IMG/VR virus record: IMGVR_UViG_3300011008_000999
Length of the DNA: 64,000 bases
Direction: 5' to 3' (one strand)
Source: a virus
Taxonomy: Duplodnaviria; Caudoviricetes
In this document: positions 36,120-59,227 of the stretch, piece after piece
Layout: each line of letters opens with the position of its first letter
Position numbering within the stretch: the first letter of the stretch is position 1
Made by a program: the position numbers and the translations under genes
The notes under the pieces: model-generated
Databases searched by the model: none
What the model saw: only the letters and a program-made list of their open reading frames with translations
Told to the model about the DNA's origin: nothing

Positions 36120-37929
36120 TTATGAACCAAATGTAGAATCTTCATCATCGTCTTCCATGTCTTCTTCACGCTTCTTAGCAAATGGGTTAGAAGTAAGAAG
36201 GTTTACATCATAAATAGACTTGATACGAATAATACCATTACGATTCAATCTATCAATCATGAAGCAAGTACCTGTAGGAAAGTTAGTTGCTGATGATACA
36301 ATTGAATCTACATCAATAGCTGAAGATGGATTGATCTTAGACGTATCAAATGCATCTAAGAACAGCTGTGCTTCTTCCATAGATGACTTGAACATAAACT
36401 TAGTTGTAATGTAGTTTGCAATACCCTTAGGGAAGTGAGAAATACCCTGAGACGCAAGTACAGTAGCAACATTAAGTGAACGACCAAGAACAAGGAATCT
36501 ATCTATAATAGCACCCATCTCCTTGTTACCAAATAATAAGTGCGCCTCATCACAAATAAGTGTTGTAGGAATCTTATTATCACCAGAAAGAATATCAAGT
36601 AACTTTGTAGTTATAATATAAAGAATAGCTGATGTAAATCTTTCATTTGCATCATAGTCTTCAGGTTTCTTAGAATAATCAGGAAGACTAAGACCATGTA
36701 ATGAAATAACCATAGAATCTGTAGATGAAAGTACAAGTGGCTTTACATTTGTTTCACGAGTAAAGAGTAACTTACCATACTTGTTATCTTCAAACATCTT
36801 AAGCAATGTACCAACAGTCTGAGCATATTCATTCTGGTTAGCATAAAGATAGTCTGCAACATCCTGCATATCATAATAATCGCCAGTAGTTTTAGCTCTA
36901 GTAACAAAGTCTGTTACAATAGGTGTAATACCAATAATAGTATTTCTTTCAAGCTTACCACACATGATTTCAATAACAGTCATAAGTGTAGCAGTATCAA
37001 TATACTTAATATTACCTTTCTCGTCGATTTTCTTTAAGAATTCGAACGGATTTAAAGCACCTGGACGAATCTTATTGATGTCAATAATACTGATGTTAGG
37101 ATTTACATTATACAACTTATCAAAGTCGTTTTTAGGGTCAATAGCAATAACTCTTTGACCCATACCTAAACAATTTGCTGCAATATTTAATAGTGCAAAT
37201 GTCTTACCTGAACCAGGAGAACCTACTACAATAGTAATATCGATAGGTAAGCCTTTGAAGTTATCTCCAGCTTTTCCCCCGATCCACACCGTGCATGCGA
37301 TTTTCATCGCACACGGCGTTCCATCAAGATTTAATTATTCTCGAGTTACAATTAAACCATTGACTTGTGGCCATTACTACTATTCTCATTACAAGAATTA
37401 TCGACGCTTCGACCACTACTTTTCAGCATTAGTTAAGTAGCTTATTATTCTTCGTCTACAATCTAAATCGACTAATACCTTTCCTCGTTCCAATATATTC
37501 TATCTGTACATATACTTTTAGGTGCCTACTTTAGACTAATTTAGCTTGGATGTACCCGCCTGATAAATCATTCGTACAACATAGTATTTCATAGCCAAGC
37601 ATTTTACTTTACTACACTAAATTATCTGTATACTTCGTAGGTTCGTCAGATTTCGTTATCATTCTCACCATGAGTATTTTATAGACTTCCGGCATATTCT
37701 GCCGACTTTACCGAGCTTCTAACAATTAAAGTTTCCTTATATATTGCTAGTCGAAGATTAAAGAATGTGTTTCAAGTCGTTACTCTATCATTCCACATTT
37801 CGAATATATTAGTTCTCCATACATAACTGTATGTGTTTAGCCTTTGTGTATTTAAGCTAAAAACGAGTCGCACCCTGGCGCATTATTTACCATCTGAGCA
37901 GTTGTAGGACTCCATTTGATAGTACTCAT
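36120..37929 (-). CDS. VirB4/ConE-like conjugation ATPase, two exons (37874-37929 + 36120-37236), 390 aa spliced
   Basis: Spliced start MSTIKWSPTTAQMVNNAPG|TIVVGSPGSGKT; IDPKND, LNPF, ICDEAH, GRSLN...ASQ. Confidence 0.82.
37237..37873 (-). mobile_element. ORF-less group II intron (637 nt, class B-like)
   Basis: 5' GTGCGACTCG; domain V GAACGCCGTGTGCGATGAAAATCGCATGCACGGTGTG; domain VI ending CCTATCGATAT; EBS1 CTTGGC (37594-37599) complements IBS1 GCCAGG; excision restores the frame. Confidence 0.92.
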
Positions 37930-44057: not shown

Positions 44058-45623
44058 TTATTTCTTCCATTCAAATTTTAATGAACCACTACCCCAAATT
44101 ACTGGATAATTCTTAAGCTTACTATATAACTTAGGGTTTCTTGCAACTACATTATCTCTAGATATTACATACCATTTATTTGGACCAGTATCTCCAATTA
44201 GCTCCATACCTAAAGCTAAATAAGACTTACCATCAAACTTATTAAAGTCACAATAACTGAATACTTTTGATGGAGTATAATCAGTGACAAAATGTTTAAA
44301 TAACTTACTTACACCACCTATGACTATATTATTAGAACCTGGACAACCACGAATGATTTCCCATTCATTATCGTTTTTAAGGTTTCTATTATATCTAGTT
44401 TTACTAAATGACATAAGTTGAACTAATTCATTTTTGTAGAATAATCCATACGTAACTTGAGCATTTCTATGACCTTGTAAATGCGTAGCTTCATTAAATG
44501 GTTTAGCATCTTGATTAGATATTAGCCTAACTTCACACTGACGAGCATATATCTTAGATACTGAACCTAATGATATATTCAGTAACTGCTTAATCTTATC
44601 AGGATAATTAGACCATTCCCATTCATAAATATGAATCAATCTTATTCCTCTATCTCTACAAGCTTTAGACTTATCTATATGATAAGTTTTATTCTTATGT
44701 TCTGCATCATGCCAGAATGTTCCATTACACTCTATAGCAATATGTTTATCTGGAATATATACGTCTAATTCATAAGGCTTTAGAATATCTCTAGTATTAG
44801 TAATAATCTTACCAGAATAGATAGATTTAATGTAGTCAATAACTTCAGTTTCAAATAAAGAACTTTGATAATGATTAATCTCACTATATTTTTGGATATT
44901 GATAAGCTCTGAATTCTTTATAAAGGCATTATTTCCACAATAAATAGGATGTACGTTAATCTTATCAATAACAAAAGTCCAACCAAAACCATATTTCTGA
45001 ATAACTTCATCTCTACTAATACAATCATTTTGTATCATAAATTCTTGTAATCTAGACTGTTTTAATTGTTTTGTATGTTGTTTTACTATATCAGACTGCT
45101 GAGGACGTTCTGTACCATATTTAGCTAAACTAGTAGCTTTACTTTTGTCCTTAACATCATCACTTTGCCAAGAATACTCTACTCCATAACGTTCTAGATT
45201 AGTTTGTCTAATCTTTTCTTTTATTTGTTCCGATGCATATACATTTTCAACACCATACTTCTCGACGTTTGTTTTAGCTCTTTTAGTCTTAGCTTCTTTT
45301 GATTGACTATTTACTTTTGCTTTTTCTTTAGTCTCCTCAAGATTAAGATTGCATTTTACTCCATATTTTTCAATAGAAGTTTGTTTAATCTTTTCTCGGA
45401 CCACTGGATCTAAGTTAGCACACTTAGAAGAACAATATAATCTATAACCAGTTAGTATAGTATCAAATGCAGTTTCTTTTCCACAAATCTTACACTTACC
45501 TTCAGAATCAGTTTTAAGATACTTATCATAATAATCTTTACTTGCTAACTGATGTTTTCTCTTAAGATGACTACTTATTCCTTTAGGTCCGCATTCTTGA
45601 CCACATATTTTACACTTAAACAT
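44058..45623 (-). CDS. Homing endonuclease: zinc fingers + Vsr-like nuclease + Hef-like C-terminal domain
   Basis: CKICG..SHL...H, KYGVE repeats, ELDVYIPDKHIAIECNGTFWH, IYARQCEV..HLQG..GGVSKL..FSYCD. Confidence 0.82.
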   Translation of the reverse strand: MFKCKICGQECGPKGISSHLKRKHQLASKDYYDKYLKTDSEGKCKICGKETAFDTILTGYRLYCSSKCANLDPVVREKIKQTSIEKYGVKCNLNLEETKEKAKVNSQSKEAKTKRAKTNVEKYGVENVYASEQIKEKIRQTNLERYGVEYSWQSDDVKDKSKATSLAKYGTERPQQSDIVKQHTKQLKQSRLQEFMIQNDCISRDEVIQKYGFGWTFVIDKINVHPIYCGNNAFIKNSELINIQKYSEINHYQSSLFETEVIDYIKSIYSGKIITNTRDILKPYELDVYIPDKHIAIECNGTFWHDAEHKNKTYHIDKSKACRDRGIRLIHIYEWEWSNYPDKIKQLLNISLGSVSKIYARQCEVRLISNQDAKPFNEATHLQGHRNAQVTYGLFYKNELVQLMSFSKTRYNRNLKNDNEWEIIRGCPGSNNIVIGGVSKLFKHFVTDYTPSKVFSYCDFNKFDGKSYLALGMELIGDTGPNKWYVISRDNVVARNPKLYSKLKNYPVIWGSGSLKFEWKK

Positions 45624-45664
45624 ATTTATCTCCAATTCTACTTAGAGATAAATATCTCTAAGCT

Positions 45665-46060
45665 TTAATCTTTTACTTCGACTAAAGTGTCGATTGACAA
45701 TGGGTTATTTTGAATAATACCAGGCAAAACGGAAGCATCATTACGCTGAGTACAAAGTATACAATGTATTCCAGCAGATCTTCCAAGCTGAGTAATACTT
45801 TGTATGTTACTAATAATCTCGTCTTTTAAAGCGTCTTCAGCTTTACCTTCAGTAGTTTTAATACCAGACTTACCAGTTAACTCTGCAATCTCATCTACTA
45901 CAATCAATAGACGAGGCATTTCATCTGTATAACATTTATCTACACAGTTCTTATTGACTGGAATCCAATGTTCTCCATCAAGTTGAATTTCAAGTTCTGG
46001 CAATTGAACTTCTACTTTTGCTTTAGCATTTTTACCAGTATCATTTAACATCCATCCCAT
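45665..46060 (-). CDS. FtsK/SpoIIIE (coupling protein-like) ATPase internal fragment ending in an intein-N remnant
   Basis: PRLLIVVDEIAEL (Walker B), LGRSAGIHCILCTQR, PGIIQNN then PLSIDTLVEVKD-stop; no Walker A. Confidence 0.85.
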   Translation of the reverse strand: MGWMLNDTGKNAKAKVEVQLPELEIQLDGEHWIPVNKNCVDKCYTDEMPRLLIVVDEIAELTGKSGIKTTEGKAEDALKDEIISNIQSITQLGRSAGIHCILCTQRNDASVLPGIIQNNPLSIDTLVEVKD

Positions 46061-46063
46061 TGT

Positions 46064-46957
46064 TTAATTCACCTCCAATTTACCTGCACCATATATAGTA
46101 TATCCATTATCATATATCTTAGTTGGTTCAGGAATAACATCTAATAAACTATTTTTATTAAAGTCATTTTTAGGATATTTGTCTATACCTAAAATCAATT
46201 CTTTTAATAAATGTTTTTGTTTATCAATATCTTCAAATTCATAAATATGTATTAGACGTATACCTTTATCTCGACATAATAATGACTTATGTAAATGATA
46301 ATCTTTAGGCGTTCCAGCATTTACAGAATGATACCATTTACCATTATACTCTATGGCTAATTTCAAATCTGGCAAATATATGTCTAATTCGAATGGATAA
46401 ATAATCTTACGTCTATTTTCTAGTATTATTCCTTTATAGAACGTTTTTATATATTCTACAAGTTCTTTTTCTGCATGTGAAGTGCTACAATTAGGCCTTT
46501 TTACTGATACATAGTCTATAATTTTTTGTATTTCATTGATAGGCACAAATTTAGTTTGACTATCCATATAAATAAAATTAACTATATTACTTGAATACCA
46601 ACCATGTCCATATTGTACTCTTAAATCATTCGCAAATATACAATTATGGTCAAGCTCAAATTGTTTTATTTTACTATTTCTAGTATCTTTCCATGCATTA
46701 GGATTAAAATGATCCTTGTCTGAATACATACATTCTGGCGAGCAATATTTTCCAATATATCCTATAGAGATAGTTTTGAACTTGGTATCTTTTCCACATA
46801 CTGTACATTTTCCTTCATTAGGTTTTCTTAAATATTTATCATAATACTCTTTAGCTGAAAGTTTATGTTCAATAAGATGATTACCTAATACTTTACATGT
46901 TTTACTACATATTATACAAGTTTGTGATTGATCTCCATTACGATCGAACCATCCCAT
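46064..46957 (-). CDS. Free-standing Vsr-like homing endonuclease
   Basis: Zinc fingers, EYYDKYL...EGKC, ELDIYLPDLKLAIEYNGKWYHS, IRLIHIYEFED. Confidence 0.82.
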   Translation of the reverse strand: MGWFDRNGDQSQTCIICSKTCKVLGNHLIEHKLSAKEYYDKYLRKPNEGKCTVCGKDTKFKTISIGYIGKYCSPECMYSDKDHFNPNAWKDTRNSKIKQFELDHNCIFANDLRVQYGHGWYSSNIVNFIYMDSQTKFVPINEIQKIIDYVSVKRPNCSTSHAEKELVEYIKTFYKGIILENRRKIIYPFELDIYLPDLKLAIEYNGKWYHSVNAGTPKDYHLHKSLLCRDKGIRLIHIYEFEDIDKQKHLLKELILGIDKYPKNDFNKNSLLDVIPEPTKIYDNGYTIYGAGKLEVN

Positions 46958-46969
46958 ACTAACACCTCC

Positions 46970-47242
46970 TTAGATAGTAATCCAGTGATCACCTTCGTAC
47001 TGAATCAGTCCAAGTATTTCATCTTCTATGAATCTTACACCGTCAGATGTGCCTATAATAACTGTACCAATATTACCTGAAATCTTAACTACGATGAAAT
47101 ATGCTTCAGGGTCATTTACATCGTATACAAATGAGTCCTTTGAGATAAATTTCTTTTTAGTATCATCGTAGTCAAATTCAATTGGATCAATACCAAGCTG
47201 ATCAAAATAAGGTTTCATTGCCTCGTTAATATTAGTGTTCAT
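46970..47242 (-). CDS. Hypothetical protein
   Basis: ORF in operon. Confidence 0.6.
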   Translation of the reverse strand: MNTNINEAMKPYFDQLGIDPIEFDYDDTKKKFISKDSFVYDVNDPEAYFIVVKISGNIGTVIIGTSDGVRFIEDEILGLIQYEGDHWITI

Positions 47243-47246
47243 TCTT

Positions 47247-48083
47247 TTAATTTCCTTTCTTGAATAGGTTAAATTTTATTTTTTGTTGTGTATCTTTTTC
47301 TTTTATAAAACGATCTAAAATAAACAATAGATCTTCTGGAAGTCTATTACGAACTTCCTGTTTCATATCTTCAGGAACTCCATAAAAAGCTTCTGCCATA
47401 CTTCCTGCAATACAAGTTAATGTATCGCAATCACCACCAAGAGAAACTGCTGTACGTATAACATCTTCAAAGTCATTACTTTCTAAGAATGCTGTAATAG
47501 CTTGTGGTACAGTTTCTTGACATGTTTCTACATGATGATATGTAGGTCTAATTTCATCACAAGTTTTAGATAAATCATATCCAAATTCATCAATTACATA
47601 CTGTTTGATGTAGTCTTTATCTTTACCTGTTCTAGCTAAGAAAATAACTGAAGCAGTTGCTTCTGCACCTTTAATTCCTTCAGGATGATTATGTGTTACT
47701 TCTGCTGTAAGTCTAGCTACTTCTCTTGTTTTCTCTATAGTATTAAATAGCCATCCAACTGATGAAACTCTCATAGCAGATCCATTACCACAGCTATTAT
47801 ATGGTTCTGTATGATTTGTTTTAAGCCACCAAGAGAATCTTGTTCCATAACCTTCATCTGGATATAATGCTCCATAATGTTTCATAGACTTAACTATTGC
47901 TTTTTTAATCTTTTCATTAGACTTAAATCTAGTATCAAGTAGAGCTTCTGCTACTGCTAGAGTCATAACTGTATCATCTGTTTTTCTACTAGATTCGATC
48001 CATAATGGAAAATCTTTTCGTTTTTCACTTCTATCATATTCATAAGGTGCTCCAACCATATCACCTAAAATTGCTCCATACAT
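47247..48083 (-). CDS. ADP-ribosylglycohydrolase (DraG/ARH family)
   Basis: GAILGD.VGAPYE, TDDT, GNGSAMR, THNHPEG, GGDCDT. Confidence 0.93.
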   Translation of the reverse strand: MYGAILGDMVGAPYEYDRSEKRKDFPLWIESSRKTDDTVMTLAVAEALLDTRFKSNEKIKKAIVKSMKHYGALYPDEGYGTRFSWWLKTNHTEPYNSCGNGSAMRVSSVGWLFNTIEKTREVARLTAEVTHNHPEGIKGAEATASVIFLARTGKDKDYIKQYVIDEFGYDLSKTCDEIRPTYHHVETCQETVPQAITAFLESNDFEDVIRTAVSLGGDCDTLTCIAGSMAEAFYGVPEDMKQEVRNRLPEDLLFILDRFIKEKDTQQKIKFNLFKKGN

Positions 48084-48149
48084 AGGTAATTTCCTTTCTG
48101 TGAATAAAAATCGAACCTAGTATATAAAATACCAGGTTCGAAATTTATT

Positions 48150-49874
48150 TTAATTATCATCTTCTAAATCTTCCTCAGATTCATTATCGAAGTAGAAACC
48201 GATCTTATGTTCTTTGTCTTTACCTCTATTGAAAATACGAGTAAGATTTAACATTCTTCGGCCATCAAAGCCTTTTTCATCACCTTCAGCATCTGCAAAT
48301 GTATAGAACTGAAATATAAAGCTTTCATTTACATCAAGTTCAATATTAGTAAGAATCGCTACACCTGAAGAAGCATTGAATTCTTTAATATGTGTTCTAA
48401 GCTCATCTAATAATTCAATTGGTTTATAGACAATAATATTATTTCTAAGTCTACCGCGCTTCTCAAAGTAATATGTTTTATTTTTAAGAACATTTGCTCT
48501 AGCTGTACCAGCGACACTTTCAAGTAATGGTTTAGTGAGTCTAGGATCTCTTGAATTATCGATAAGAGTTTCAAAGACTTCTTCCCAACCTCTTACCCTG
48601 TCATAATAGTCAGCTAATCTATGTTTAGCTACATATTTAGCAACTGCTTTACGATCTTTTTCTGGTGTATCATAGAAGTCATAGAAAATTTTAAGCATAT
48701 TAAGTATATGCTCTTCGAGTACATTGAGATCAATAATATCTCTATACATATTATAGATAATATATCTAGGTGCGTCAGACTTATACTTAGTTAATGCTCT
48801 CTGAACTGCACTAAAATATCCTAAACTTAACGCTGTATCAATATCTACACAGATAGTCATAGCTTCCAGACCAGATGACTGATATTCTTTAAACATCTTA
48901 TGTCTAAACTCAATTACTCTAGAATATTCTACATACGTCTTAATATTATTAAGAAGTTTGTTTTTAATATTTTCACCTATTGAAGAATCAGTATAGTTAG
49001 ACATAGTTATGTTTCGTTTAACTTCAGTCTTAGCAGTTTCAAAATAATCTGACAGTTTTAACTTATATGATGCATTAGAGTTTAACATACCTGCAACTCT
49101 ATTTTCTAAGTTAGGTACATTTACAGTTAAGAATTTATCGACATTTTCAATAAGCTGAGTAGTACTAACAGTGCTTCCAGATGTCCAAATCTTAGATTCT
49201 ATGTCTCTAATCCACTTTAAGATCTCGTCTCTAACTGCATCTAATTCCTTAGACTTTCTTTCAAATTCAGCTTGTTCCTGAGCTCTTTGCGCTTTGAAAT
49301 CAGCTTGTATTTTATTAAACTGTCCTTCATCAATTTCAACTACTCGACCTTTATCTAACTTACCGTAGAATACATAACCAGCATCATTTCTTACATAAGG
49401 TCTATAACACTTAACACGAAATACCCATTCAGTTCCACAAGGGAAATTTTCTGAATAAGTTTTCCATTCAGTAGATAAATCAAATGTACTTATGAGATTT
49501 TGAGGTCTAGTATAGCTAAATCTTGATCCATCATAATAACTTTCAAGTAAAGCTTTACCTTTAGCTTTTATAGTTACGTCATCATCAGCAAGATCAGTTT
49601 GAATATCAATAATTTTAGTTTCTTTTCCATCTTTACGCGTATATGGAATAAGTTTAGCTGTTACAGTAATAACACCACTTTCGGACTTTTTAGGTACAGT
49701 AAATGTAACAGTTTTTCCAGCCACAATCTGTTCAAGATGGTCTTCAGTCATATATCCTGGTTCAAAATAGTTATCATATACTTCTTTAAATATAGATAAG
49801 TTCTTTTTCTTACCAGCAGCATCAGTATATGAGTAATACCAACCATATGGACCATTTATTACTTTATTAGCCAT
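48150..49874 (-). CDS. Hypothetical protein with an N-terminal topoisomerase-C-type repeat
   Basis: MTEDHLEQIVAGKTVTFTVPKKS....TVTAKL resembles the repeats in 16101-16880 and 54583-55095. Confidence 0.6.
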   Translation of the reverse strand: MANKVINGPYGWYYSYTDAAGKKKNLSIFKEVYDNYFEPGYMTEDHLEQIVAGKTVTFTVPKKSESGVITVTAKLIPYTRKDGKETKIIDIQTDLADDDVTIKAKGKALLESYYDGSRFSYTRPQNLISTFDLSTEWKTYSENFPCGTEWVFRVKCYRPYVRNDAGYVFYGKLDKGRVVEIDEGQFNKIQADFKAQRAQEQAEFERKSKELDAVRDEILKWIRDIESKIWTSGSTVSTTQLIENVDKFLTVNVPNLENRVAGMLNSNASYKLKLSDYFETAKTEVKRNITMSNYTDSSIGENIKNKLLNNIKTYVEYSRVIEFRHKMFKEYQSSGLEAMTICVDIDTALSLGYFSAVQRALTKYKSDAPRYIIYNMYRDIIDLNVLEEHILNMLKIFYDFYDTPEKDRKAVAKYVAKHRLADYYDRVRGWEEVFETLIDNSRDPRLTKPLLESVAGTARANVLKNKTYYFEKRGRLRNNIIVYKPIELLDELRTHIKEFNASSGVAILTNIELDVNESFIFQFYTFADAEGDEKGFDGRRMLNLTRIFNRGKDKEHKIGFYFDNESEEDLEDDN

Positions 49875-49888
49875 GATCGATACCTCCT

Positions 49889-50698
49889 TTAGTTCGAATT
49901 AAAATGGTTATAAATAACTTGAATCATCTTAGGTCTAATTGTTATGAAATAAACTGCCTTGAAACAATCATCTGCTGCCATAGATAGTCCAACTTTCTGT
50001 GTAACTTCTTTTAAGTAGTCTGAATTATTATAAAATACTGACTGTAACATCTTAGAAGCAGCTGTATAATTTGGCCAAGCAAGTTCGTATTTTTCGTCAT
50101 TAAAGTTTGAATTAAGTGTATTTAAGTATGTTTCATCAATTCCATGTTCAGAAATATACTCAAATTCATCTTCATAATAAACTAAAATACTTTCAACCCA
50201 ATCATTATACTCATTTACATCAGTATCAATATTTAAACTAAGTGATTCATCTATAATTACTTTACTAATAGCTGATTTAAACTCCTTCATTCCAGGAGCA
50301 TTAGCCAGTTTCTGGAATGCATAGTTATGCCCAGTTCTTTCTAATAGATAATCATAACATTCATAGCAGTGAGATACAGTCATATCATGATTATAACTAA
50401 TATACTCAGAGATCTCCATATTATCTCTACTCCAGCCCTGTTTATTATTACCTACTTCATCCTGGACAACCGCTTTAAGTTTACCTGCAAACCAATGTTT
50501 AATCCAAGCTTCAGCTCTACCTCTGAAACCGCTATCCCATTTATCATTATCAATAATAAGACCAGTTCCTTCAGTATGACAATATTGCCAATACTTATTC
50601 ATTCCAGGACTATTTTCCCATTTACCATCAGATAACTGACCAATAACACCATCAATTATTCTAGCTCTAGTTGTGTTTCCTAAACTAATTGTCATCAT
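49889..50698 (-). CDS. Hypothetical protein
   Basis: VIGQLSDG.WEN motif; RBS present. Confidence 0.7.
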   Translation of the reverse strand: MMTISLGNTTRARIIDGVIGQLSDGKWENSPGMNKYWQYCHTEGTGLIIDNDKWDSGFRGRAEAWIKHWFAGKLKAVVQDEVGNNKQGWSRDNMEISEYISYNHDMTVSHCYECYDYLLERTGHNYAFQKLANAPGMKEFKSAISKVIIDESLSLNIDTDVNEYNDWVESILVYYEDEFEYISEHGIDETYLNTLNSNFNDEKYELAWPNYTAASKMLQSVFYNNSDYLKEVTQKVGLSMAADDCFKAVYFITIRPKMIQVIYNHFNSN

Positions 50699-50723
50699 GG
50701 TTATCTACCTCCGTAATCCAAAT

Positions 50724-50790
50724 AAAATGACTAATCTCTATATGAGACTAGTCATTTTTCACATTCTTACTCTATTATAATTAAATAGTT
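50724..50790 (-). repeat. Repeated promoter-like + hairpin element, copy 2
   Basis: CTATTTAATTATAAT...AAAATGACTAGTCTC-ATATA-GAGATTAGTCATTTT. Confidence 0.7.
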
Positions 50791-50792
50791 CT

Positions 50793-51176
50793 TTATAATA
50801 CAAAAGTAGATATAATACGTCCAATTTCAGCTATATCTACACGACCCTTAAATTCAAAGGTAGCAGTAAAATTATTTGAAAATACAATATAAAGTTCTGA
50901 GTCTGGAAATATCTCCATAAATCCAGTAGTCTGAATAGTAAAGTACTGAACCTTAGAATAAGGCATAGTACAAAATGATTTTCTCTTACCTGTTACACCT
51001 TGTACATCAATAGCTATAATTCGCTTATTAGTAAATACTAACTGATCTCTAATTGTTTGAAAAGCCATAATTATCTCTTCATCAGGTACAAATAATGCCT
51101 GTACTTCACTTCTTACTGAATCATTTGATATCTGTTTAAGATTAAATACATTGTCTTTGTTAAAATTTACTGCCAT
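50793..51176 (-). CDS. Bacterial PH domain protein
   Basis: F.TIRDQLVFTNKRIIAIDVQGVTGKRK....PYSKVQ.F.IQT.G...DSEL. Confidence 0.88.
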   Translation of the reverse strand: MAVNFNKDNVFNLKQISNDSVRSEVQALFVPDEEIIMAFQTIRDQLVFTNKRIIAIDVQGVTGKRKSFCTMPYSKVQYFTIQTTGFMEIFPDSELYIVFSNNFTATFEFKGRVDIAEIGRIISTFVL

Positions 51177-51187
51177 GATACCTCTCC

Positions 51188-51733
51188 TTATGTATAGTTC
51201 ACTAATTTTTCATCAAGTTTCTTTTTATCCGCAATTGATCCATATAGACCTATGCAAATCGCATCAGCTGTATCATTATCCTTGATGATCTCATCACCTT
51301 TCTTTGGATGATGTACTACAATATCTAAATTTACTTGAGGATATTTTGATTCTATAAATGCAACTGCATCTTCTTTCTTTGCTGATCTATTACCTAGTAC
51401 TTTACTTTTCCAAGATTGTACATGTACAGCACTTATAGAAATCTTATCTGAGAATTCATTTATTATAGTCGCTTGTAAGAATGCCATACTTACAATATTA
51501 TACATTCTAGATACACCTTTATAGAATGCAATTTCCTCAAATAATAAATAGTCGTTTTTAGTCAGTTTGTACTTTTTAATGTACTCATTAATTTGTTTAA
51601 TGATTTTCTTTCTATGATGCCAGGCGGATTCAGAATCTGCATAATTCAATCTACTCCAGTCAAGTAGTTCTTCACCTCGCATGACACAGATAGAATTACG
51701 AGTTTTATTGCCTAAATCTATGCCTATAATCAT
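51188..51733 (-). CDS. RuvC-like Holliday junction resolvase
   Basis: IIGIDLG, LFEE, SWKSKVLG...AKKED, DTADAICIG. Confidence 0.8.
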   Translation of the reverse strand: MIIGIDLGNKTRNSICVMRGEELLDWSRLNYADSESAWHHRKKIIKQINEYIKKYKLTKNDYLLFEEIAFYKGVSRMYNIVSMAFLQATIINEFSDKISISAVHVQSWKSKVLGNRSAKKEDAVAFIESKYPQVNLDIVVHHPKKGDEIIKDNDTADAICIGLYGSIADKKKLDEKLVNYT

Positions 51734-51947
51734 AATTAACCTCTTTCAATCTTTATAATATGTCCATCTTTATCAATATAAGGACTAATTTTGTTCATAA
51801 TAATTTCCCTATAAAAAGTTAGTTTTAGAAATATTAAATACTTTACAATATTCATTTACAAGTTTTTCAAGTTCAGGATCGTTTTGTATCATAATTTTAC
51901 CTCATATAGAAAGAGGGTACTCATTTCTGAATACCCTCTTAATTTAA

Positions 51948-53351
51948 TTACTTCATACGTTTAATGGCTTCCTCAGCAAGAGGACTTCTTACACACTGAT
52001 CAGGCTCAAAGCGAATGATCGCACATAACGGACTACCTTTCATACAGTCTTTTGCATAAACCAAACCATTATTTCTCTTATCAAGCTTAGTATTATCAAC
52101 CTGTGAAGGATCTCCAGCAATAATTACTTTTGTATTCTGACAAGGTCTTGTAACTACATCTTTAATAAGATTCTTAGAAGCATTCTGCGCTTCATCACAG
52201 ATAAGATATGCATTGTTAATTGAACGACCTCTAATAGAATAAAGAGGACATAATTCAATATATCTATCATACATCATATCTTCAATGACTCTTCTTGTAT
52301 CTGCAATAGGTGTGTCTTTATCTCCAAGAATAACTTCGAGGTTATCCATATAAGATGCAACCATAGGACCCATCTTTTCCTCAAGTGTACCAGGTAAGTA
52401 ACCAAAGTCCGCATCAGACGTATTAGCATTAGGTCTAGAAATTAGAATTCTATTATAGATTTCCTGTGTATCATTATCTGACTTCTTTTTGCTAATACCT
52501 AACTGATGTAATCCACACGCCAATGATGCAAATGTTTTAGATGTACCTGCAGGTCCTTCTAGAATAACTAAAGGAATATCAGGATTAGTTAATGCCCACA
52601 TTGCGTATGTTTGCATCTTATTAAGTGGATGAATATTTCCATGTACAATAATATCATTGATCTGTTTAATAAGACCTTTCTGATATACTGTAAGTACACA
52701 TTTATCACCACATGTAATAGTTACAAACTGATTTTCATATAATGGATATTCTAATTTTCCAATTTCATCAATCAATTCTGCTTCTATTTGATGCTTCTTA
52801 TAAATTTCATCTATAATAGTCCAATCTGCAATTTCAAGATTTAAGTGACCTGAATATCCAATATACTCAATCTCTTCACTTTTTATAGTATCAGCATTAA
52901 CATCACATATAAGTGAATTAATAAAACATCCAGTATCATTTGTGAGAAGAGTAACTGGACTATCTTTAAGATAGTTCTTATTCATATGTACGCAAGAAGA
53001 AATTATTCTATTGTCTGGAACCGATATATCGTATCCTTTAGGAAGATTAGAAACATCAACTCCGTCTGGTTCAAAGAATAATTTTCCACCATTAGGAAGA
53101 TCAATTCCTTGATCTCTTACAATTTTAATTCTTTCTTCTTTAGGTACATTGTCAATTGCATCTTTAATTAAATTAGCAATGATACGAAGAGCTTCTCTAG
53201 CATTATAACCAGGCTCTCCTTTATCTCTCTTATGTGCATCTAATTCCTGAATAACTGTACCACAAAGACGAACATTATTATCCTCGAAATTAAAAATAGC
53301 ATTAGGATTGGACATCAAAATATTGGTGTCAAGTAAATAATTCTTTACCAA
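51948..53351 (-). CDS. phoH: PIN-PhoH protein (PhoH2)
   Basis: LLDTNIL..ELD..PDNRI..LLTND; GPAGTSKT, GYLPG.LEEKM, IRGRS, DEAQN, GDPSQVD. Confidence 0.93.
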   Translation of the reverse strand: MVKNYLLDTNILMSNPNAIFNFEDNNVRLCGTVIQELDAHKRDKGEPGYNAREALRIIANLIKDAIDNVPKEERIKIVRDQGIDLPNGGKLFFEPDGVDVSNLPKGYDISVPDNRIISSCVHMNKNYLKDSPVTLLTNDTGCFINSLICDVNADTIKSEEIEYIGYSGHLNLEIADWTIIDEIYKKHQIEAELIDEIGKLEYPLYENQFVTITCGDKCVLTVYQKGLIKQINDIIVHGNIHPLNKMQTYAMWALTNPDIPLVILEGPAGTSKTFASLACGLHQLGISKKKSDNDTQEIYNRILISRPNANTSDADFGYLPGTLEEKMGPMVASYMDNLEVILGDKDTPIADTRRVIEDMMYDRYIELCPLYSIRGRSINNAYLICDEAQNASKNLIKDVVTRPCQNTKVIIAGDPSQVDNTKLDKRNNGLVYAKDCMKGSPLCAIIRFEPDQCVRSPLAEEAIKRMK

Positions 53352-53365
53352 TGTTATTATCTCCT

Positions 53366-54031
53366 TTAGATTATCTCATCTATATCGCAATCTTCACCGA
53401 CTATACAATCTACTACTCCAACTTCCTTAGCCTTTTTAGGGAGGAAATACCATTCAACTCTATATTTTTCATCATAGAGCTCAGGAGTAATTTTTGTATG
53501 GTTTATAATATGGTCTTTAGTAATTGCTTCAAGTTCGCCTAATTCAAAATCCATTCGATCTTTCATTTTTGCGGTTGAACCGTATGCACCATTTGAACCA
53601 TCATGCATTAAAAACTCTGCATGTGGCATAGCGAATCTTTTCTGACCTGCAATAAAAATGAGAAATCCCATACTATAACACATTGCCTGATTTATTGTAT
53701 AAACAGGTGTCTTGCTAGTAAGAATTGCATCGATTAAACCATAACCTGGACAAACTTCACCACCTGGGCTATTAATGTAAAGTTTAATCGGTACTCGGTC
53801 TTCAATAGGTTTGCCTTTATCTTGTCTGTTATATCTTAAGATATGCCAAACTATAGACTCGATAACCTCGTCATCGATACCAAAGTTAATATATAGTCGT
53901 CTACCTTCAAGTTCTTCAATATCAAAGGTATCTTCTATACAAAGATTAACTACGCTTTTTGCCTCCTCGTTTTTATTAGTTTTAGGTGTCGGCGTCTTAG
54001 CGCTGGCCTTGGTTGTTGTGTTTTCTGCCAT
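53366..54031 (-). CDS. clpP: ClpP-like protease subunit
   Basis: IKLYINSPGG, CYSMG, RFAMPHAEFLMH, A.EVGVVD. Confidence 0.88.
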   Translation of the reverse strand: MAENTTTKASAKTPTPKTNKNEEAKSVVNLCIEDTFDIEELEGRRLYINFGIDDEVIESIVWHILRYNRQDKGKPIEDRVPIKLYINSPGGEVCPGYGLIDAILTSKTPVYTINQAMCYSMGFLIFIAGQKRFAMPHAEFLMHDGSNGAYGSTAKMKDRMDFELGELEAITKDHIINHTKITPELYDEKYRVEWYFLPKKAKEVGVVDCIVGEDCDIDEII

Positions 54032-54582
54032 AACATGTTTCCTTTCATGATTTTTTATTAGATAGTCTTTCGACTTAATCTACATCTTTTACGTCAAATT
54101 CATCAAAGAAATGAACCATAAACCACTCATGCGAGTCACTTATAATATCTTCATACTCTTTTTTAGTAAGCGTTGTTTCTATATTCTTTTTTGCCAATAC
54201 GTTAAAGCATACATCACTTACAGCATTATAATATTTTGATCTGAACTCACTCTTAATTTCTTGTTTTTGCTCGTCTGTCATGATAATACCTCCTATAAGT
54301 CTAAATGAAAATACTTAATAAGTACATTAGTAATTCTATTCCAAGAGTCTACAGTAAGTTTAGCACCTTTAATAGTCTCACCGGTAACACCATCACAGAT
54401 AGCATCGTCATCAAAATAAAATGGATTATCAGCATCTATTTTATCACCAAACTTTTGCAGAAATTTCTCTTTATACTCCAACTGATTTTCATAATTCGAA
54501 ATTTCATCTGAGAAAATATTTAATACGACTTTCATATAGTTCCTCCTTTAGTAATAATTTACTGATAATCCATTTATGTAGT

Positions 54583-55095
54583 TTACTTAAAATCAGGCTT
54601 AAATCCAACAAACTTGTTACCACTGTATTCCTGTTCAGCGAGCTTACCTGTAGCAGTGTAATAATTTCCAGTTTTCTGAGATACAGCTTGAAACTTAATA
54701 GTCTGTCCTGCAAGAAGAGCTGCTACTTCTTCATCTGTGAATCGGTGTTCACTCCAAACTCTCTTAGGATTAACCTCTTTTCCATTCCATGTACCAGAAA
54801 ATCTTTCTACATCATCCTTAGGTTTCTCGTCAAATACTAACTGGAATCCAAGATACTCATGCTCATTACCTTCATCATCAGTAAACTTTTGAATATCAAG
54901 CTTACCTTTTGCCTTGTAAGGCTTACCTGCTTTAGATATTGCATCAAACTCTATAGTTTCTTCATTAAAGAGCTTGGCACATTCTTCAGCGGTAAACTCA
55001 TGACCTTCCCAATTAGGATTCTTACCCCATAACTTTTTAATACTATAAGGATTACCTTTCCAGGTACCATTTACTTTTTCTACTGCTTCGCTCAT
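54583..55095 (-). CDS. Stand-alone protein of two topoisomerase-C-terminal-type repeats
   Basis: 2x GTW.G....K..W..H.FT.EE.A.L....TI.F.A.S.K.G..Y.A.GKL..Q.(F/Y).G....GF. Confidence 0.7.
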   Translation of the reverse strand: MSEAVEKVNGTWKGNPYSIKKLWGKNPNWEGHEFTAEECAKLFNEETIEFDAISKAGKPYKAKGKLDIQKFTDDEGNEHEYLGFQLVFDEKPKDDVERFSGTWNGKEVNPKRVWSEHRFTDEEVAALLAGQTIKFQAVSQKTGNYYTATGKLAEQEYSGNKFVGFKPDFK

Positions 55096-55311
55096 AATCT
55101 AAATTCCTTTCTAGAACAATTACATTGTTATAATTAAATAGTCTTTATTTTTCACGTTCCTTAAAGTGTTTACAAGCAGTCTGACCAAAGAAAGAAATAT
55201 GTTTTCCAACTAGATCAGACTTTAGACATACACAAGTGAATTTACAATTATACTGACAATCTCTACAATTCTTCCGTTTTATCGTTTTTGCCTTCATGAT
55301 TATTTACCTTT

Positions 55312-57003
55312 TTACATAGATGCAATGATTTTCTTATACTCATCGTCATCTGGAATTAGACTAGGCTGATTATTCCAATCAGTGATCCATATAATAGATC
55401 TATCTAAACACTCTTCTTTAGTTCTATTTGGATTATACTTATAGATAAGTTTAGCGTACATCTTAATATCTGAACGTCTATTTCTACAATCAGCTAATCT
55501 TTCCCATGCGGCATAATCATCAGATTTAAGCTCGTCTCGCCAATCGTCATTCCACTTTTCATCCATAGTATTACCTCTCTTATCTATCCTTAATATTTAC
55601 TTCTAATTTGTTCTTTACATTCTTCGCATATATGACCAGTTACATTAGCGTACATTTTATTAAGTTCATATGTCTTTTTGCATCCAGTACAAACACAAGC
55701 GTCTTTAAGAGCTTCATCAATAATTGTACTTAACTGTAAATGATGTTTATTATCTATAGTTGTTAAATAACCTTGAGCACCATATTCAGGTCCATCAAAA
55801 CAAATATATACACCAATATCAGTTCTTCCAGGTCTACATACTAAAGCAATTCCATACCATTCTTCATTAGTCTTTTTCTGAAACTGTGGTATAGGAATTA
55901 CAATTTGATCATCTTTTACAAAATCACATTTATAATTGTTTAGTTCAGCCAACAGATACCTCATATCTGGGCGACTATCGATATCTACCATAAGATTATC
56001 CTCCATTTCTACATATAACTCTGTCAAAATACTTAGGCACGTTTTGTAAGTCTTTATTCCTAATAGTGATTTCCAATAAAATATCAGCTTCAAGATTATG
56101 CACTTTAGCTAAATATTCATAATATCTTGTTATTTCATTTACTAATGAAAATACATCTTGATCCCACTCTTCTGCAACCCATAGAATAGCAATAGTGGCA
56201 TCGTCATAATATACAGACTCTACATAATAATCTCTTAATCCATAAGGTATATTACAGATGTTAACTGCATCTTTTTGTTCAGGTGGCATTTTATTACTAT
56301 ATTTTGGTCCATTGATCTTAATATCACAGAACTCTCTTATAAAACTACTTGCTTTCATCATGGACCTCCTTTAGCTTTTCTTTGAAATTTATATATTCAT
56401 ACATTGTTATTCCTAAACTATCTATTGTATGTGAATAAAATGTACTATCTGCATATTTAATAAAGTCATCAGTAAATCGACGACCATCACAACATATTTG
56501 TCTGACATATTGTCTATTTTCTTTTGTGTTTGATTTTCTTAATAATTTTAACGTATTTTTAGTCGCTATATACATTGGTAGACTACGTGTATCAAAAAAC
56601 ATTAGTGAAAGTGGTCGGCTAAAAAACAATACAACACATATAATTAAAACTGTTATGCATGCTAATACCGACTGCACATTGTTCACTTCCTCTCTATATA
56701 TTTTCTAGTAGTAAAGTCTATACAATCACGAACTATTCTATTATAGAGTAATTCATCATAAGATTTAAAAGTACTCCATTTATATGGATGCTCATTAAAC
56801 TTAGCTTTACCTGTGATATCATAGTAGTCTTTATCTATTTTGCAGATAAAATGATTTTCAATTGGCAAGTAATATATCTCACCATTAAAGTGTTCTTTTA
56901 AAATCACTGCGAAATAATAACAATTACCATGCAGAAATAGGTCTTCAACCTCACTTGCATGGCAAAACTTAAACTTCTTTATGAATTTTTCAACATTATC
57001 CAT
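55312..57003 (-). other. Run of small hypothetical genes
   Basis: ORFs 55312-55566, 55590-~56000, 55996-56361, 56345-56686, 56683-57003. Confidence 0.6.
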
Positions 57004-57011
57004 ACTATCCT

Positions 57012-57452
57012 CTACTGTACACTATCTAACAGTTGAGTAGGAGATAAGAACATTAAACAAGGAAAATTTCGTACAATACCAAATATGATTAAGGTGGATA
57101 AGAATATTCCAATAAACCATATAGTGAATTTTGACCATTTACCTCTGAATACATAGAATATATTTTGATATAAGTAAACCAATATAACAATTGGCCACAT
57201 AATAAATACATAAGGATTCCATCTAAATGCTTGATATAAGTCATGATCGTAAAGTACACTTTCTATAAGTCGAGTTGTACCACAGCCAGGACAATTAACT
57301 TCAAAATGCTGATGGATAGGACACTGGATCCTATAACCTATATGCCATTCTATAATTACAAAAGCAATACATATACAAACTATAAAGATATTTATAAGTA
57401 AGACCAGCTGGATTCTATCCACACTGGTCTTCTTGGAGGAGGGTCTATTCAT
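57012..57452 (-). CDS. DUF2752 membrane protein
   Basis: CP......CPGCGTTR........YQAFRWNP...FGIVRN. Confidence 0.85.
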   Translation of the reverse strand: MNRPSSKKTSVDRIQLVLLINIFIVCICIAFVIIEWHIGYRIQCPIHQHFEVNCPGCGTTRLIESVLYDHDLYQAFRWNPYVFIMWPIVILVYLYQNIFYVFRGKWSKFTIWFIGIFLSTLIIFGIVRNFPCLMFLSPTQLLDSVQ

Positions 57453-57800
57453 TTGATAATTCCTTAATTATTTGCGTACATTCCAGCACCTGCAAGAATA
57501 ATGTTGTACATATACTGCAGAAGTGCGATGCTGTCACCTCTGAAATTCTGGATCTTAGCGATTATCTTCTTCTGATAAGCAGTTGCCTCAACATAAGTAT
57601 TCACAAAGACAATCAGCTGAGTTTTCTTTTCTGCCATTGAAATAGTTTCATCAAGGCAAATCTGATCGAAATTCTTATGATATTCCTCAAGAGTAAAGGC
57701 AATTGAACCTTCAACCTTAGTAAAATCCACTGCGTTGTTCTTTTTCTCGTTAATTTTCTTTGCCATGTAAAATACCTCCACGTATTTTTATTATGATATA

Positions 57801-57833
57801 ATTATAACATGACAAAGTCAACTTGTAAATAGT
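57801..57833 (-). promoter_or_regulatory. Conserved promoter ACTATTTACA-N17-TATAAT driving 57464-57781
   Basis: Consensus motif. Confidence 0.85.
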
Positions 57834-57891
57834 TTTTAGAAAATTTTTTCAAAAATTTTAGTTACTTTGATATAATAAATATACACATTTA

Positions 57892-58353
57892 TTATACCTC
57901 CTCAAATTTCTGCTCTTTACGATTATCGATCTCAGCATGCTCACCACTAAAGTCAATAACTGTAGTAGAGTTCATGTTATCGAGATCAATTTCTCCTTCA
58001 AGTTTTACGTCATCAGCAACCTGTGACGTCATTCCACTATAACCTAAATCATCAAGACCACGTTGTTTGAAATATGTCTCTGTAATCCATTTCTGTTGTT
58101 CAAAATAATATTGAACACGAGAAATCTGACCTTGCATCTTAGTTATACCTGCACCTTTATGAGTACCATCTACAGTAGTACCAAGTGTCGAACCAAGAGC
58201 CATCATTGATGCAGTCTGTTCCAAACGTCCAGCAACGATCTAAATACGAGCAGCACAATTATGGGTAAAGATCATTTTCTTATCCATTGTTGTTCCACTC
58301 TTATTTAGATCACCTCCTTTACGTTTAAAAACTTTTTCTAAAATATTTAACAT
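57892..58353 (-). CDS. FtsK-like ATPase C-terminal fragment preceded by an intein-C remnant; in-frame TAG at 58240-58242
   Basis: RBS GGAGG + MLNILEKVFKRKGGDLNKSGTTMDKKMIFTHN|CAARI*IVAGRLEQTASMMALG...KGAG...RVQYYF; continues the FtsK fold where 45665-46060 stops. Confidence 0.75.
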
Positions 58354-58363
58354 AATTTTCCTC

Positions 58364-59227
58364 CTATAATAATTTTCCTGCTCCATATACATGATAATTT
58401 CTTTCACTAGTATGTATTAAAACAGGCTTTGGAATCTTTCCAAAATTGTTTTTATTGAAATCCTTTTCATTATATAAGTCAATTCCATTTAATAAAGAAT
58501 TTAACTTATAAATCTGTATATTAAAATCTTCAAATTCATATATGTGTATAAGTCGTATATCTTTATTTCTGCACATAATTGATTTTCGTAAATGATAATC
58601 TTTAGCTATTCCAGCTTCTAATGAATGATACCAGGTTCCATTATACTCTACTGCAAGCGTTAATTCTGGAAAATATAAATCTAATTCTAATGGTGATATT
58701 ACTGTTTTTGTATTTTCAAATACCTTTCCATTATAATTGATATATTTTAGAATATTCTTTTCCTTATGACTTCTTCCACTTATAGGTGTATATTTGAATG
58801 ACTTAATAATATCGAGATATTTATTATCTACATATTGGTACATCTTTGATACACGTATAATTGGAATATCAAGTCTTTGCCAATCACGTCCATATAAATC
58901 AATTAACTTTACAATATGCGTACAATTATTTGATTTTTCAAATTCATCTATTATTTGATGCTTAGTTTTCCATTGATTTAAATGATCCACTTTACTAAAA
59001 TTGCTTTGGGCAATAACTTGACACCTTTTACAACAATACGTATTATATCCTCTATCCATTCCATAGAAGTTAGTTGGTCTATTACATACGAGACATATTC
59101 CTTCATTTGATTGTTTCATGTATTTATCATAATACGAATGTTTATCTAAATTATGATAACTAGTAATATGTTTACTTAATGGTTGAATATTTTTATATTC
59201 TTTACCACATATATTACATTTTACCAT
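58364..59227 (-). CDS. Free-standing Vsr-like homing endonuclease
   Basis: CNICG..LSKHI..H, YYDKY...EGIC, ELDLYFPELTLAVEYNGTWYHS, IRLIHIYEFED. Confidence 0.82.
   Translation of the reverse strand: MVKCNICGKEYKNIQPLSKHITSYHNLDKHSYYDKYMKQSNEGICLVCNRPTNFYGMDRGYNTYCCKRCQVIAQSNFSKVDHLNQWKTKHQIIDEFEKSNNCTHIVKLIDLYGRDWQRLDIPIIRVSKMYQYVDNKYLDIIKSFKYTPISGRSHKEKNILKYINYNGKVFENTKTVISPLELDLYFPELTLAVEYNGTWYHSLEAGIAKDYHLRKSIMCRNKDIRLIHIYEFEDFNIQIYKLNSLLNGIDLYNEKDFNKNNFGKIPKPVLIHTSERNYHVYGAGKLL

Follow-up and report, generated by a model that had tools for sequence, protein, structure and literature searches.

Two genes of a probable natural three-piece class 3 split intein in the FtsK-like ATPase of an uncultured jumbo phage

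How can an FtsK-like ATPase be assembled when the pieces of its gene are scattered and permuted, and when two of them end in what look like matching parts of one intein? The question is raised by a stretch of 64,000 nucleotides (hereafter the window) from IMG/VR virus record IMGVR_UViG_3300011008_000999, an uncultured jumbo phage that we call G000. The answer that we regard as probable, from sequence comparison and structure models, is that a natural class 3 split intein, made in three pieces, would rebuild the C-terminal half of the ATPase, and that two of its three genes lie in the window. The third gene, a free-standing intein core, lies outside the window in the same genome.

The window corresponds to bases 79126-143125 of the G000 record, minus strand, and a genome coordinate equals 143126 minus the window coordinate; coordinates below are those of the window unless given as genome coordinates. 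The G000 record (331,944 bp) has direct terminal repeats, a G+C content of ~31% and almost every gene on a single strand, and it encodes 41 tRNAs and one transfer-messenger RNA. Complete genomes are named G000-G004, relative proteins P00xx and relative loci L0xx. The features of the two genes in the window are the following:

45704..46060, minus strand: N-extein, residues 1-119 of the middle ATPase piece, from Walker B to TQR and ending IIQNN (PF01580, PHROG 1358)
45668..45703, minus strand: 12-amino-acid N-intein tag PLSIDTLVEVKD (block A, Pro1), with its stop codon at 45665-45667
58258..58353, minus strand: 32-amino-acid C-intein piece MLNIL...MIFTHN, with ribosome-binding site AGGAGG at 58360-58365
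58243..58257, minus strand: first five C-extein codons, CAARI, with Cys+1 at 58255-58257
58237..58242, minus strand: 6-nucleotide insert TAG ATC after ATT, which places a stop between two Ile codons; candidate ribosomal hop
57895..58236, minus strand: rest of the C-extein, 114 amino acids (VAGRLEQTAS...KFEEV), the ATPase C-terminal domain, with its stop codon at 57892-57894

The first gene, an open reading frame (ORF) of 131 amino acids at 45665-46060, contains the Walker B motif LLIVVDE and ...CTQR..., and the FtsK-like homology ends at residue 119, the second N of QNN. The piece matches the FtsK/SpoIIIE-like family PHROG 1358 (E 8e-16) and positions 167-218 of PF01580 FtsK_SpoIIIE (21 bits against a cut-off of 24, which leaves the piece alone sub-threshold), and only distant FtsK-like genes match it in the INPHARED GenBank phage collection. 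The 12-amino-acid tag is collinear in alignment with block A of a contiguous relative intein and is kept as PLS(I/L)DTLVE(V/I) in five genomes; its codons show 6/10 synonymous differences between G000 and G002 and 0 non-synonymous ones. The ribosome-binding site of the gene, GGAGGTG, sits within the 3' end of an endonuclease ORF located directly upstream. A degenerate second intein end had been suspected at the start of this piece (NKN-CVDKC), but the residues there are native extein, since relatives have NKH-S or NKF-S and the intact proteins are continuous at this point. A 90-amino-acid ORF at 46970-47242 (minus strand), which ends ...IQYEGDHWITI, resembles EIQLDGEHWIPV near the middle-piece start. 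It was considered as an N-intein or a Walker A piece and rejected: it has no family match and its position differs in G002.

The second gene begins with a 37-codon ORF that starts at the ATG at 58351-58353 and ends ...MIFTHN-CAARI at a TAG at 58240-58242. After the TAG the same frame continues as ATC GTT GCT GGA CGT TTG and stays open for 114 codons, and the 114-amino-acid C-extein encoded there aligns with intact relatives over its entire length. Block G is confined to the last ~8 residues of the C-intein piece, the remainder being a basic leader. No match to the C piece was found in the INPHARED collection. Comparison with G002 (L017) gives ~97% DNA identity across the mini-ORF and its ribosome-binding site (58243-58365), 77-90% across the downstream C piece, and nothing upstream of the mini-ORF, where only G000 has an endonuclease gene. 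This pattern suggests that the mini-ORF and its ribosome-binding site form a cassette swapped between phages, through recent exchange, or else that they are under constraint at the RNA level.

Relatives of the ATPase were defined by a library-wide search with the middle piece, followed by retrieval of the matches. They are proteins of ~600 amino acids with an N-terminal membrane domain, Walker A GATGGGKS and, in P0027 and P0034, a junction ...ILRSN-LGxRxFCGRATE...; through these relatives, PF01580 and PHROG 1358, the hallmarks of an FtsK/SpoIIIE-like ATPase (Walker A, Walker B, TQR and a RecA-type fold) are all present. Two-polypeptide versions are frequent in the family, split just before the point where the middle piece starts (P0017, P0023). 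A tblastn search of G000 with intact relatives tiles four extein pieces, at ~5.0-6.3, 61.9-62.3, 97.1-97.5 and 84.8-85.2 kb of the genome, of which the last two are the middle and C pieces of the window.

These results bear out the outline of the original prediction for this stretch, which had been made from its letters alone. It had read 45665-46060 as a Walker B-to-TQR piece ending in QNN and a tail, and the ORF at 58353 as MIFTHN-CAARI followed in frame by the ATPase C-terminus, which we find with a ribosome-binding site and an ATG. The C piece is indeed upstream in transcription order, by 12.3 kb, both pieces being on the minus strand; the gene is in more than the minimum of three parts that had been counted; and the Walker A part, noted as missing from the window, is located at genome 5.0-6.3 and 61.9-62.3 kb. 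The prediction that removal of the two tails would leave a continuous FtsK sequence is borne out by G001, which has no stop at the junction and reads CAARIVAGRL, and by intein-less intact relatives that run across it as ...RSN-LGxRxFCG... or ...SN-TGFRCFCG... (P0027, P0034, P0017). The +1 residue is L or T in the intein-less alleles.

The block A tag and the block G piece leave out the part of an intein between them, and one of the alternatives put forward in the original prediction was that a separately encoded core supplies it. Such a core exists in G000. The closest database relatives of the C piece, P0001-4, are proteins of ~265 amino acids that start with a 143-amino-acid C-intein (CSGDH.W, R-C-I-S, FTHN-C), and a search of G000 with them gives a match at genome 55373-55708 (E 4e-16). 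The match lies in an extein-free ORF of 118 amino acids at genome 55361-55717, which carries block B (His and Trp, in HQW) and the block F Cys (QCITT) and has no block A or G adjoining it in any frame. The core matches residues 12-132 of the long C-intein of the relatives, beginning where that intein begins and stopping just before block G, and it reaches the PF05203 Hint model at a sub-threshold level (E 7e-5, 23.4 bits, cut-off 32.1). As possible substrates for it, G000 has a single block A tag at a C-terminus and just two mini-ORFs with block G. Each of the three pieces has its own ribosome-binding site and start. When stand-alone cores were counted more widely in IMG/VR, the same relatives came up and no others.

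The three-gene layout recurs, across independent assemblies, in four other complete jumbo-phage genomes of 250-467 kb, always as separate loci. The order is core, C piece, N piece in three of the five genomes, among them G000; core, N piece, C piece in one; and N piece, core, C piece in G004, where all three lie inside 5 kb and the C-intein is reduced to the 8 residues MGKILTSN behind a strong ribosome-binding site. Other relatives carry the intein in fewer pieces: P0018 has a contiguous intein at the same site, P0001-4 are split after block A only, and P0036, P0011 and P0012 are split before block G only. All 15 aligned intein forms are collinear with the three pieces, and Pro1, His B:10, Trp B:12, Cys F:4, Thr G:5, the terminal Asn and Cys+1 are invariant among them. 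A further relative, P0006 (91% relative of the middle piece), has a contiguous intein at a third site, RNDA-ALDKLY...FISHN-TVLPG, which brings the intein insertion points in the ATPase gene to at least four across the family. In contiguous-intein relatives (L029-L033, ~2230-2520) an insert of ~290 nucleotides lies 2-3 codons past THN-C, with no Rfam match in L029 and L030.

The pieces together have the features of a class 3 intein, a signature defined for the Pro1 Bethlehem DnaB intein (PMC2807308). The middle piece contributes Pro1, the core HQW and QCITT, and the C-intein piece FTHN, which gives the Trp-Cys-Thr triplet; HN-C occurs in every intein-bearing allele; the class had been proposed from Pro1 and THN and is supported further by the fold. 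The Hint fold is represented by the contiguous intein of P0018 (residues 486-640), with which the G000 pieces are collinear. An AlphaFold2 model of P0018:486-640 has a predicted local distance difference test (pLDDT) score of 86.6; in the PDB it is closest to two class 3 DnaB inteins, 6rix and 6bs8 (E 5e-7, TM 0.73-0.77), and the top matches are all inteins. A model of three chains, namely the core with the small ORF and the tail of the middle piece, scores 0.80, against 0.47 for the best of 3 controls, at a mark reached in a benchmark by 58/80 solved complexes and 2/110 mismatched pairs; contact agreement between runs is at least 82% and partner pLDDT at least 85. The modelled interface consists of middle-piece residues 117-131 (QNN and the tag) and small-ORF residues 25-34 (KKMIFTHNCA), and the basic leader is excluded. 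The docking pass may partly be memory and shows likeness, because split-intein complexes have already been solved.

The pieces are also constrained in sequence. The ratio of non-synonymous to synonymous substitution rates (dN/dS) is 0.04 against G002 and 0.12 against G001 for the core (0.04-0.29 among G000-G003), 0.12 against G001 for the middle piece, and 0.084 against G002, which bears the TAG as well, for the C piece downstream of the TAG (0.06-0.17 among G000-G003); with dS at ~0.9-1.4, near saturation, the ratios are rough. The test of the fragments for purifying selection that the original prediction had called for is thus positive for all parts. Its search for a core without blocks A and G succeeded too, through the relatives of the C piece and not through intein hidden Markov models (HMMs), and the alternative of a separately encoded core gains from the presence of that core, from the four further genomes and from the selection on it.

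If the C piece is to supply a whole domain, the TAG five codons into the C-extein must be dealt with. The junction is uninterrupted (C-A-A-R/K-I/M-V...) in G001 and eight metagenomic loci. G000 has ATT TAG ATC and its closest relative, G002, ATT TAG GTC; the inserts in other loci are 4-16 nucleotides long, for example ATT-TAGGCCTGCGG-ATT, GTA-TAGAACCAACCAA-GTA and ATT-TGACGGCCA-ATT. The stop and isoleucine that the original prediction had set in brackets at this place are not noise, being a stop-containing insert of 6 nucleotides that the closest relative shares. Among the 11 distinct gap alleles (G000 and ten more) the stop comes first in 11/11, the frame is shifted in 6/11 with resumption exactly at the residue expected from the uninterrupted alleles, and the codon after the gap is synonymous with the one before it in 6/11 (P 3e-5, a rough value for alleles that are only partly independent). 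The reading frame past the gaps stays open and conserved. This is the arrangement of a translational bypass, in which a stop comes right behind the codon of take-off and the landing codon matches it, though the one in G002 is not cognate. Recoding or readthrough of the TAG was considered and rejected: no tRNA with a CTA anticodon was found among the 41 of G000, and frame-shifting gaps cannot be read through. Given the stop-first alleles and the strong selection downstream, hopping is the likeliest reading of the junction, and we put the chance that the ribosome passes the gap in this way at somewhat better than even.

The route that we propose is as follows. Gene 1 (45665-46060) would give the Walker B piece with its block A tag, gene 2 (from 58353) the ATPase C-terminal domain led by the short C-intein (block G, ...IFTHN) and Cys+1, and gene 3 (genome 55361-55717) the free core with blocks B and F. 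1) The two tags would supply strands to the core and so complete the Hint fold. 2) The block F Cys of the core would attack the Asn119-Pro1 bond and hold the N-extein as a thioester. 3) The N-extein would be transferred to Cys+1. 4) The terminal Asn would cyclise. The ligated product would be a chain of ~238 amino acids, ...IIQNN-CAARIVAGRL..., with NDASVLPGIIQNNCAAR as its splice-junction peptide. Less certainly, the ribosome would pass ATT-TAG-ATC by a hop of peptidyl-tRNA-Ile from ATT to ATC and so make the full C-extein. The joint between the second ATPase piece and the middle piece is plain gene fission without an intein, and the flanking homing endonuclease genes would be the mobile elements that scatter and maintain the intein cassettes.

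Several points weigh against this account. The curated intein models PF14890, TIGR01445 and TIGR01443 find no match across G000 at E 10, so that relatives, sequence motifs and predicted folds have to carry the assignment, and we infer both splicing and hopping from comparison and models. The saturation of dS and the partial independence of the gap alleles, given above with the values that they limit, count here too. As to the hop itself, GTC in G002 is not a cognate landing codon, 5/11 alleles are near-matches only, and an insertion that duplicated its target site could have produced the matched flanks, which would then not be a landing signal. Judged from E. coli, a hop over 6 nucleotides would be inefficient.

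A more novel reading, which we think unlikely, gives the same parts a different use: the free core would be a trans-acting ligase that turns over, and its separate locus would time the assembly of the ATPase, with hopping over the stop gap needed for the same gene. The block F Cys would carry the N-extein as an acyl-enzyme, and the core could release the 12-amino-acid and ~8-amino-acid tags and act again.

It is rather improbable that the intein pieces still bind each other but no longer splice, and so form a non-covalent clamp that joins the middle and C polypeptides. The docking model does show assembly and not chemistry, the family already tolerates plain fission between the second and middle pieces, and in G004 the penultimate His is replaced by Ser. 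However, Cys F:4, Thr G:5, the terminal Asn and Cys+1, residues that serve the chemistry only, are invariant in all split forms, whereas intein-less alleles carry L or T at +1; a clamp could do without such invariance, and the explanation is disfavoured for this reason.

We give an equally small chance to the TAG being a true stop, in which case only the stub CAARI would be ligated and the C-terminal domain would arise by reinitiation and be bound non-covalently. The absence of suppressor tRNAs among the 41, the non-cognate landing codon of G002 and a TTG 5 codons downstream of the TAG in G000 would fit this explanation, but past the gaps there is no conserved start codon or ribosome-binding site (the TTG is TTA, CTG or CTT in other alleles), and the six frame-shifting alleles resume exactly at the expected residue. 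Moreover, the core and tags are strongly selected in both TAG-bearing genomes, a constraint that would have no point for the transfer of five residues.

Decay of a gene fractured by endonuclease insertions, with the pieces as relics, was the third alternative of the original prediction and could draw on the in-frame stop, on the three endonuclease genes beside the pieces and on the permuted, scattered order. We hold it to be very improbable: dN/dS is 0.04-0.12 for each piece, there are no more stops or frameshifts, the pieces have their own ribosome-binding sites and the architecture recurs in five complete genomes, and the purifying selection on every piece leads us to reject it. Least credible of all is a joining of the pieces at the RNA level by group I or II intron trans-splicing, or a recoded TAG, without protein splicing, for although group II introns interrupt the ATPase gene in relatives and one lies elsewhere in the window, an Rfam search at relaxed threshold finds neither type of intron close to the pieces in G000, the pieces end in stops and have their own ribosome-binding sites, there is no suppressor tRNA and the frame-shifting gaps are unreadable.

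Three homing endonuclease genes flank the two pieces, and ordinary phage cargo genes lie between the pieces at 47247-54031 (minus strand):

44058..45635, minus strand: homing endonuclease, 525 amino acids, directly downstream of the middle piece (PHROG 3339, E 3e-96; PF24308, PF18741)
46064..46957, minus strand: homing endonuclease directly upstream of the middle piece (PHROG 3339, E 1.5e-33)
58364..59227, minus strand: homing endonuclease, zinc finger and Vsr-like, ...AVEYNGTWYHS... (PHROG 3339, E 2e-29)
47247..48083, minus strand: ADP-ribosylglycohydrolase, cargo between the pieces
51948..53351, minus strand: PIN-PhoH ATPase, cargo between the pieces
53366..54031, minus strand: ClpP-like protease, cargo between the pieces

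The three endonuclease ORFs share the Vsr-like ...EYNG..WH... motif of fractured-gene endonucleases. The one at 58364-59227 immediately precedes the C-intein piece, whose ribosome-binding site overlaps the TAG stop of the endonuclease; this endonuclease gene is absent from the corresponding place in G002. A perfect hairpin, CTTAGAGATA TTT ATCTCTAAG, lies at ~45640-45664 (minus strand) between the middle-piece stop and the TTG start of the 525-amino-acid endonuclease, and is similar to the 5' hairpins that fractured-gene endonucleases are reported to have. The G002 endonuclease ORF downstream of the middle piece (L010:11035-12102) ends ...VQNNPLSADTLVKTKD, which is a diverged second copy of the terminus of the middle-piece gene, intein tag included.

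Group II introns are present in and around this gene family. Introns without an ORF interrupt the middle-piece gene of relatives, one in G002 (L010:10389-10968) and at least two in G003 (L011:10325-12161). The window has a single intron, a group II intron that lies at 37237-37817 (minus strand; RF02004 105 bits, RF00029 59.8 bits) with no obvious reverse transcriptase; because its 3' end overlaps the start of the AAA_10 ATPase ORF at 36120-37307, that gene is probably interrupted.

A second three-piece intein was observed in G000, at the Walker A site GGGK-S, with parts at genome 5009-6298, 17.5-18.2 kb and 61.9-62.3 kb (L007:9900-10340). It comprises a 15-amino-acid tag, AIYIDQSVEVQSDEM, before a stop; a free core of ~195 amino acids ending ...CFCISTDTGRYET and a stop; and a mini-ORF ...RGLISHN-SVTLRNVIFHCI, after which a 24-nucleotide hairpin insert with three stops lies between two ATT codons. 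The P-loop at the Walker A site also holds a cis intein, VGS-PLGLNT...IYQ-TGGGK. The second set may be orthogonal to the present one.

A 2023 preprint, which lists the engineered three-piece inteins Ssp and Rma DnaB, Npu DnaE and gp41-1 (bioRxiv 10.1101/2023.01.30.526203), states that no natural intein is known to be encoded by more than two genes; in the literature that we searched, three-piece inteins are described as engineered only. The present system is not a two-piece split intein, having three genes with an extein-free middle one, and it resembles the engineered designs in that a short N tag, an extein-free middle and a short C tag rebuild one Hint domain, with cuts after block A and before block G. 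We take these cut sites to be those named S1 and S11. The engineered inteins are class 1 and of the laboratory, whereas the one described here occurs in nature, belongs to class 3, has its genes at distant loci and is conserved across several phages. AceL NrdHF (PMC7891396; PDB 6zgq) likewise combines class 3 chemistry with a natural split and comes from uncultured DNA of viral or environmental origin, but consists of two pieces that are each fused to an extein; its authors merely predicted atypically short natural fragments (PMC7891396). The class 3 cis-inteins Bethlehem DnaB (PMC2807308) and Msm and Mch DnaB-1 (6bs8, 6rix) share Pro1, Trp-Cys-Thr, the terminal Asn and the best fold match, but are contiguous and typically have Thr or Ser at +1 in place of Cys. 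A very short N-intein on the N-extein is also found in VidaL (PDB 6vgv) and the AceL and GOS TerL inteins, and P0001-4 have exactly their two-piece form. Unlike in those inteins, the N tag here has 12 residues and the C-intein is cut a second time. The N tag of VidaL is presumably 16 amino acids or longer.

The locus also recalls the fractured genes of Dassa et al. 2009 (PMC2677866), in which an enzyme gene is in pieces with split-intein ends, a free-standing endonuclease adjoins a piece and control elements lie on the endonuclease gene. There the halves are adjacent, ordered around the endonuclease and cut at the canonical site, whereas here the pieces are at genome 55.4, 84.8 and 97.1 kb, 12-42 kb apart and permuted with C before N, with two non-canonical cuts. 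As in the bypass of T4 gene 60 and MobA (bioRxiv 10.1101/2022.08.31.505936; PMC5462505), a stop follows the take-off codon and a matching landing codon follows the gap, near a homing endonuclease in a fractured gene; unlike in T4 gene 60, where the gap is 50 nucleotides, it is 6 here and 4-16 in relatives, and the two share no sequence homology.

If our interpretation is true, evolution can turn a Hint domain into a free-standing catalytic unit that recognises a pair of very short peptide tags, and the relatives present every evolutionary step, from the contiguous form through both two-piece forms to the three-piece one. The system would then offer co-evolved, ready-made parts for tag-directed protein ligation, namely tags of 12 and 8-32 amino acids and a core of 118. 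The candidate hops beside the splice junction would connect two rare processes, recoding and protein maturation, with homing endonuclease traffic in jumbo phages.

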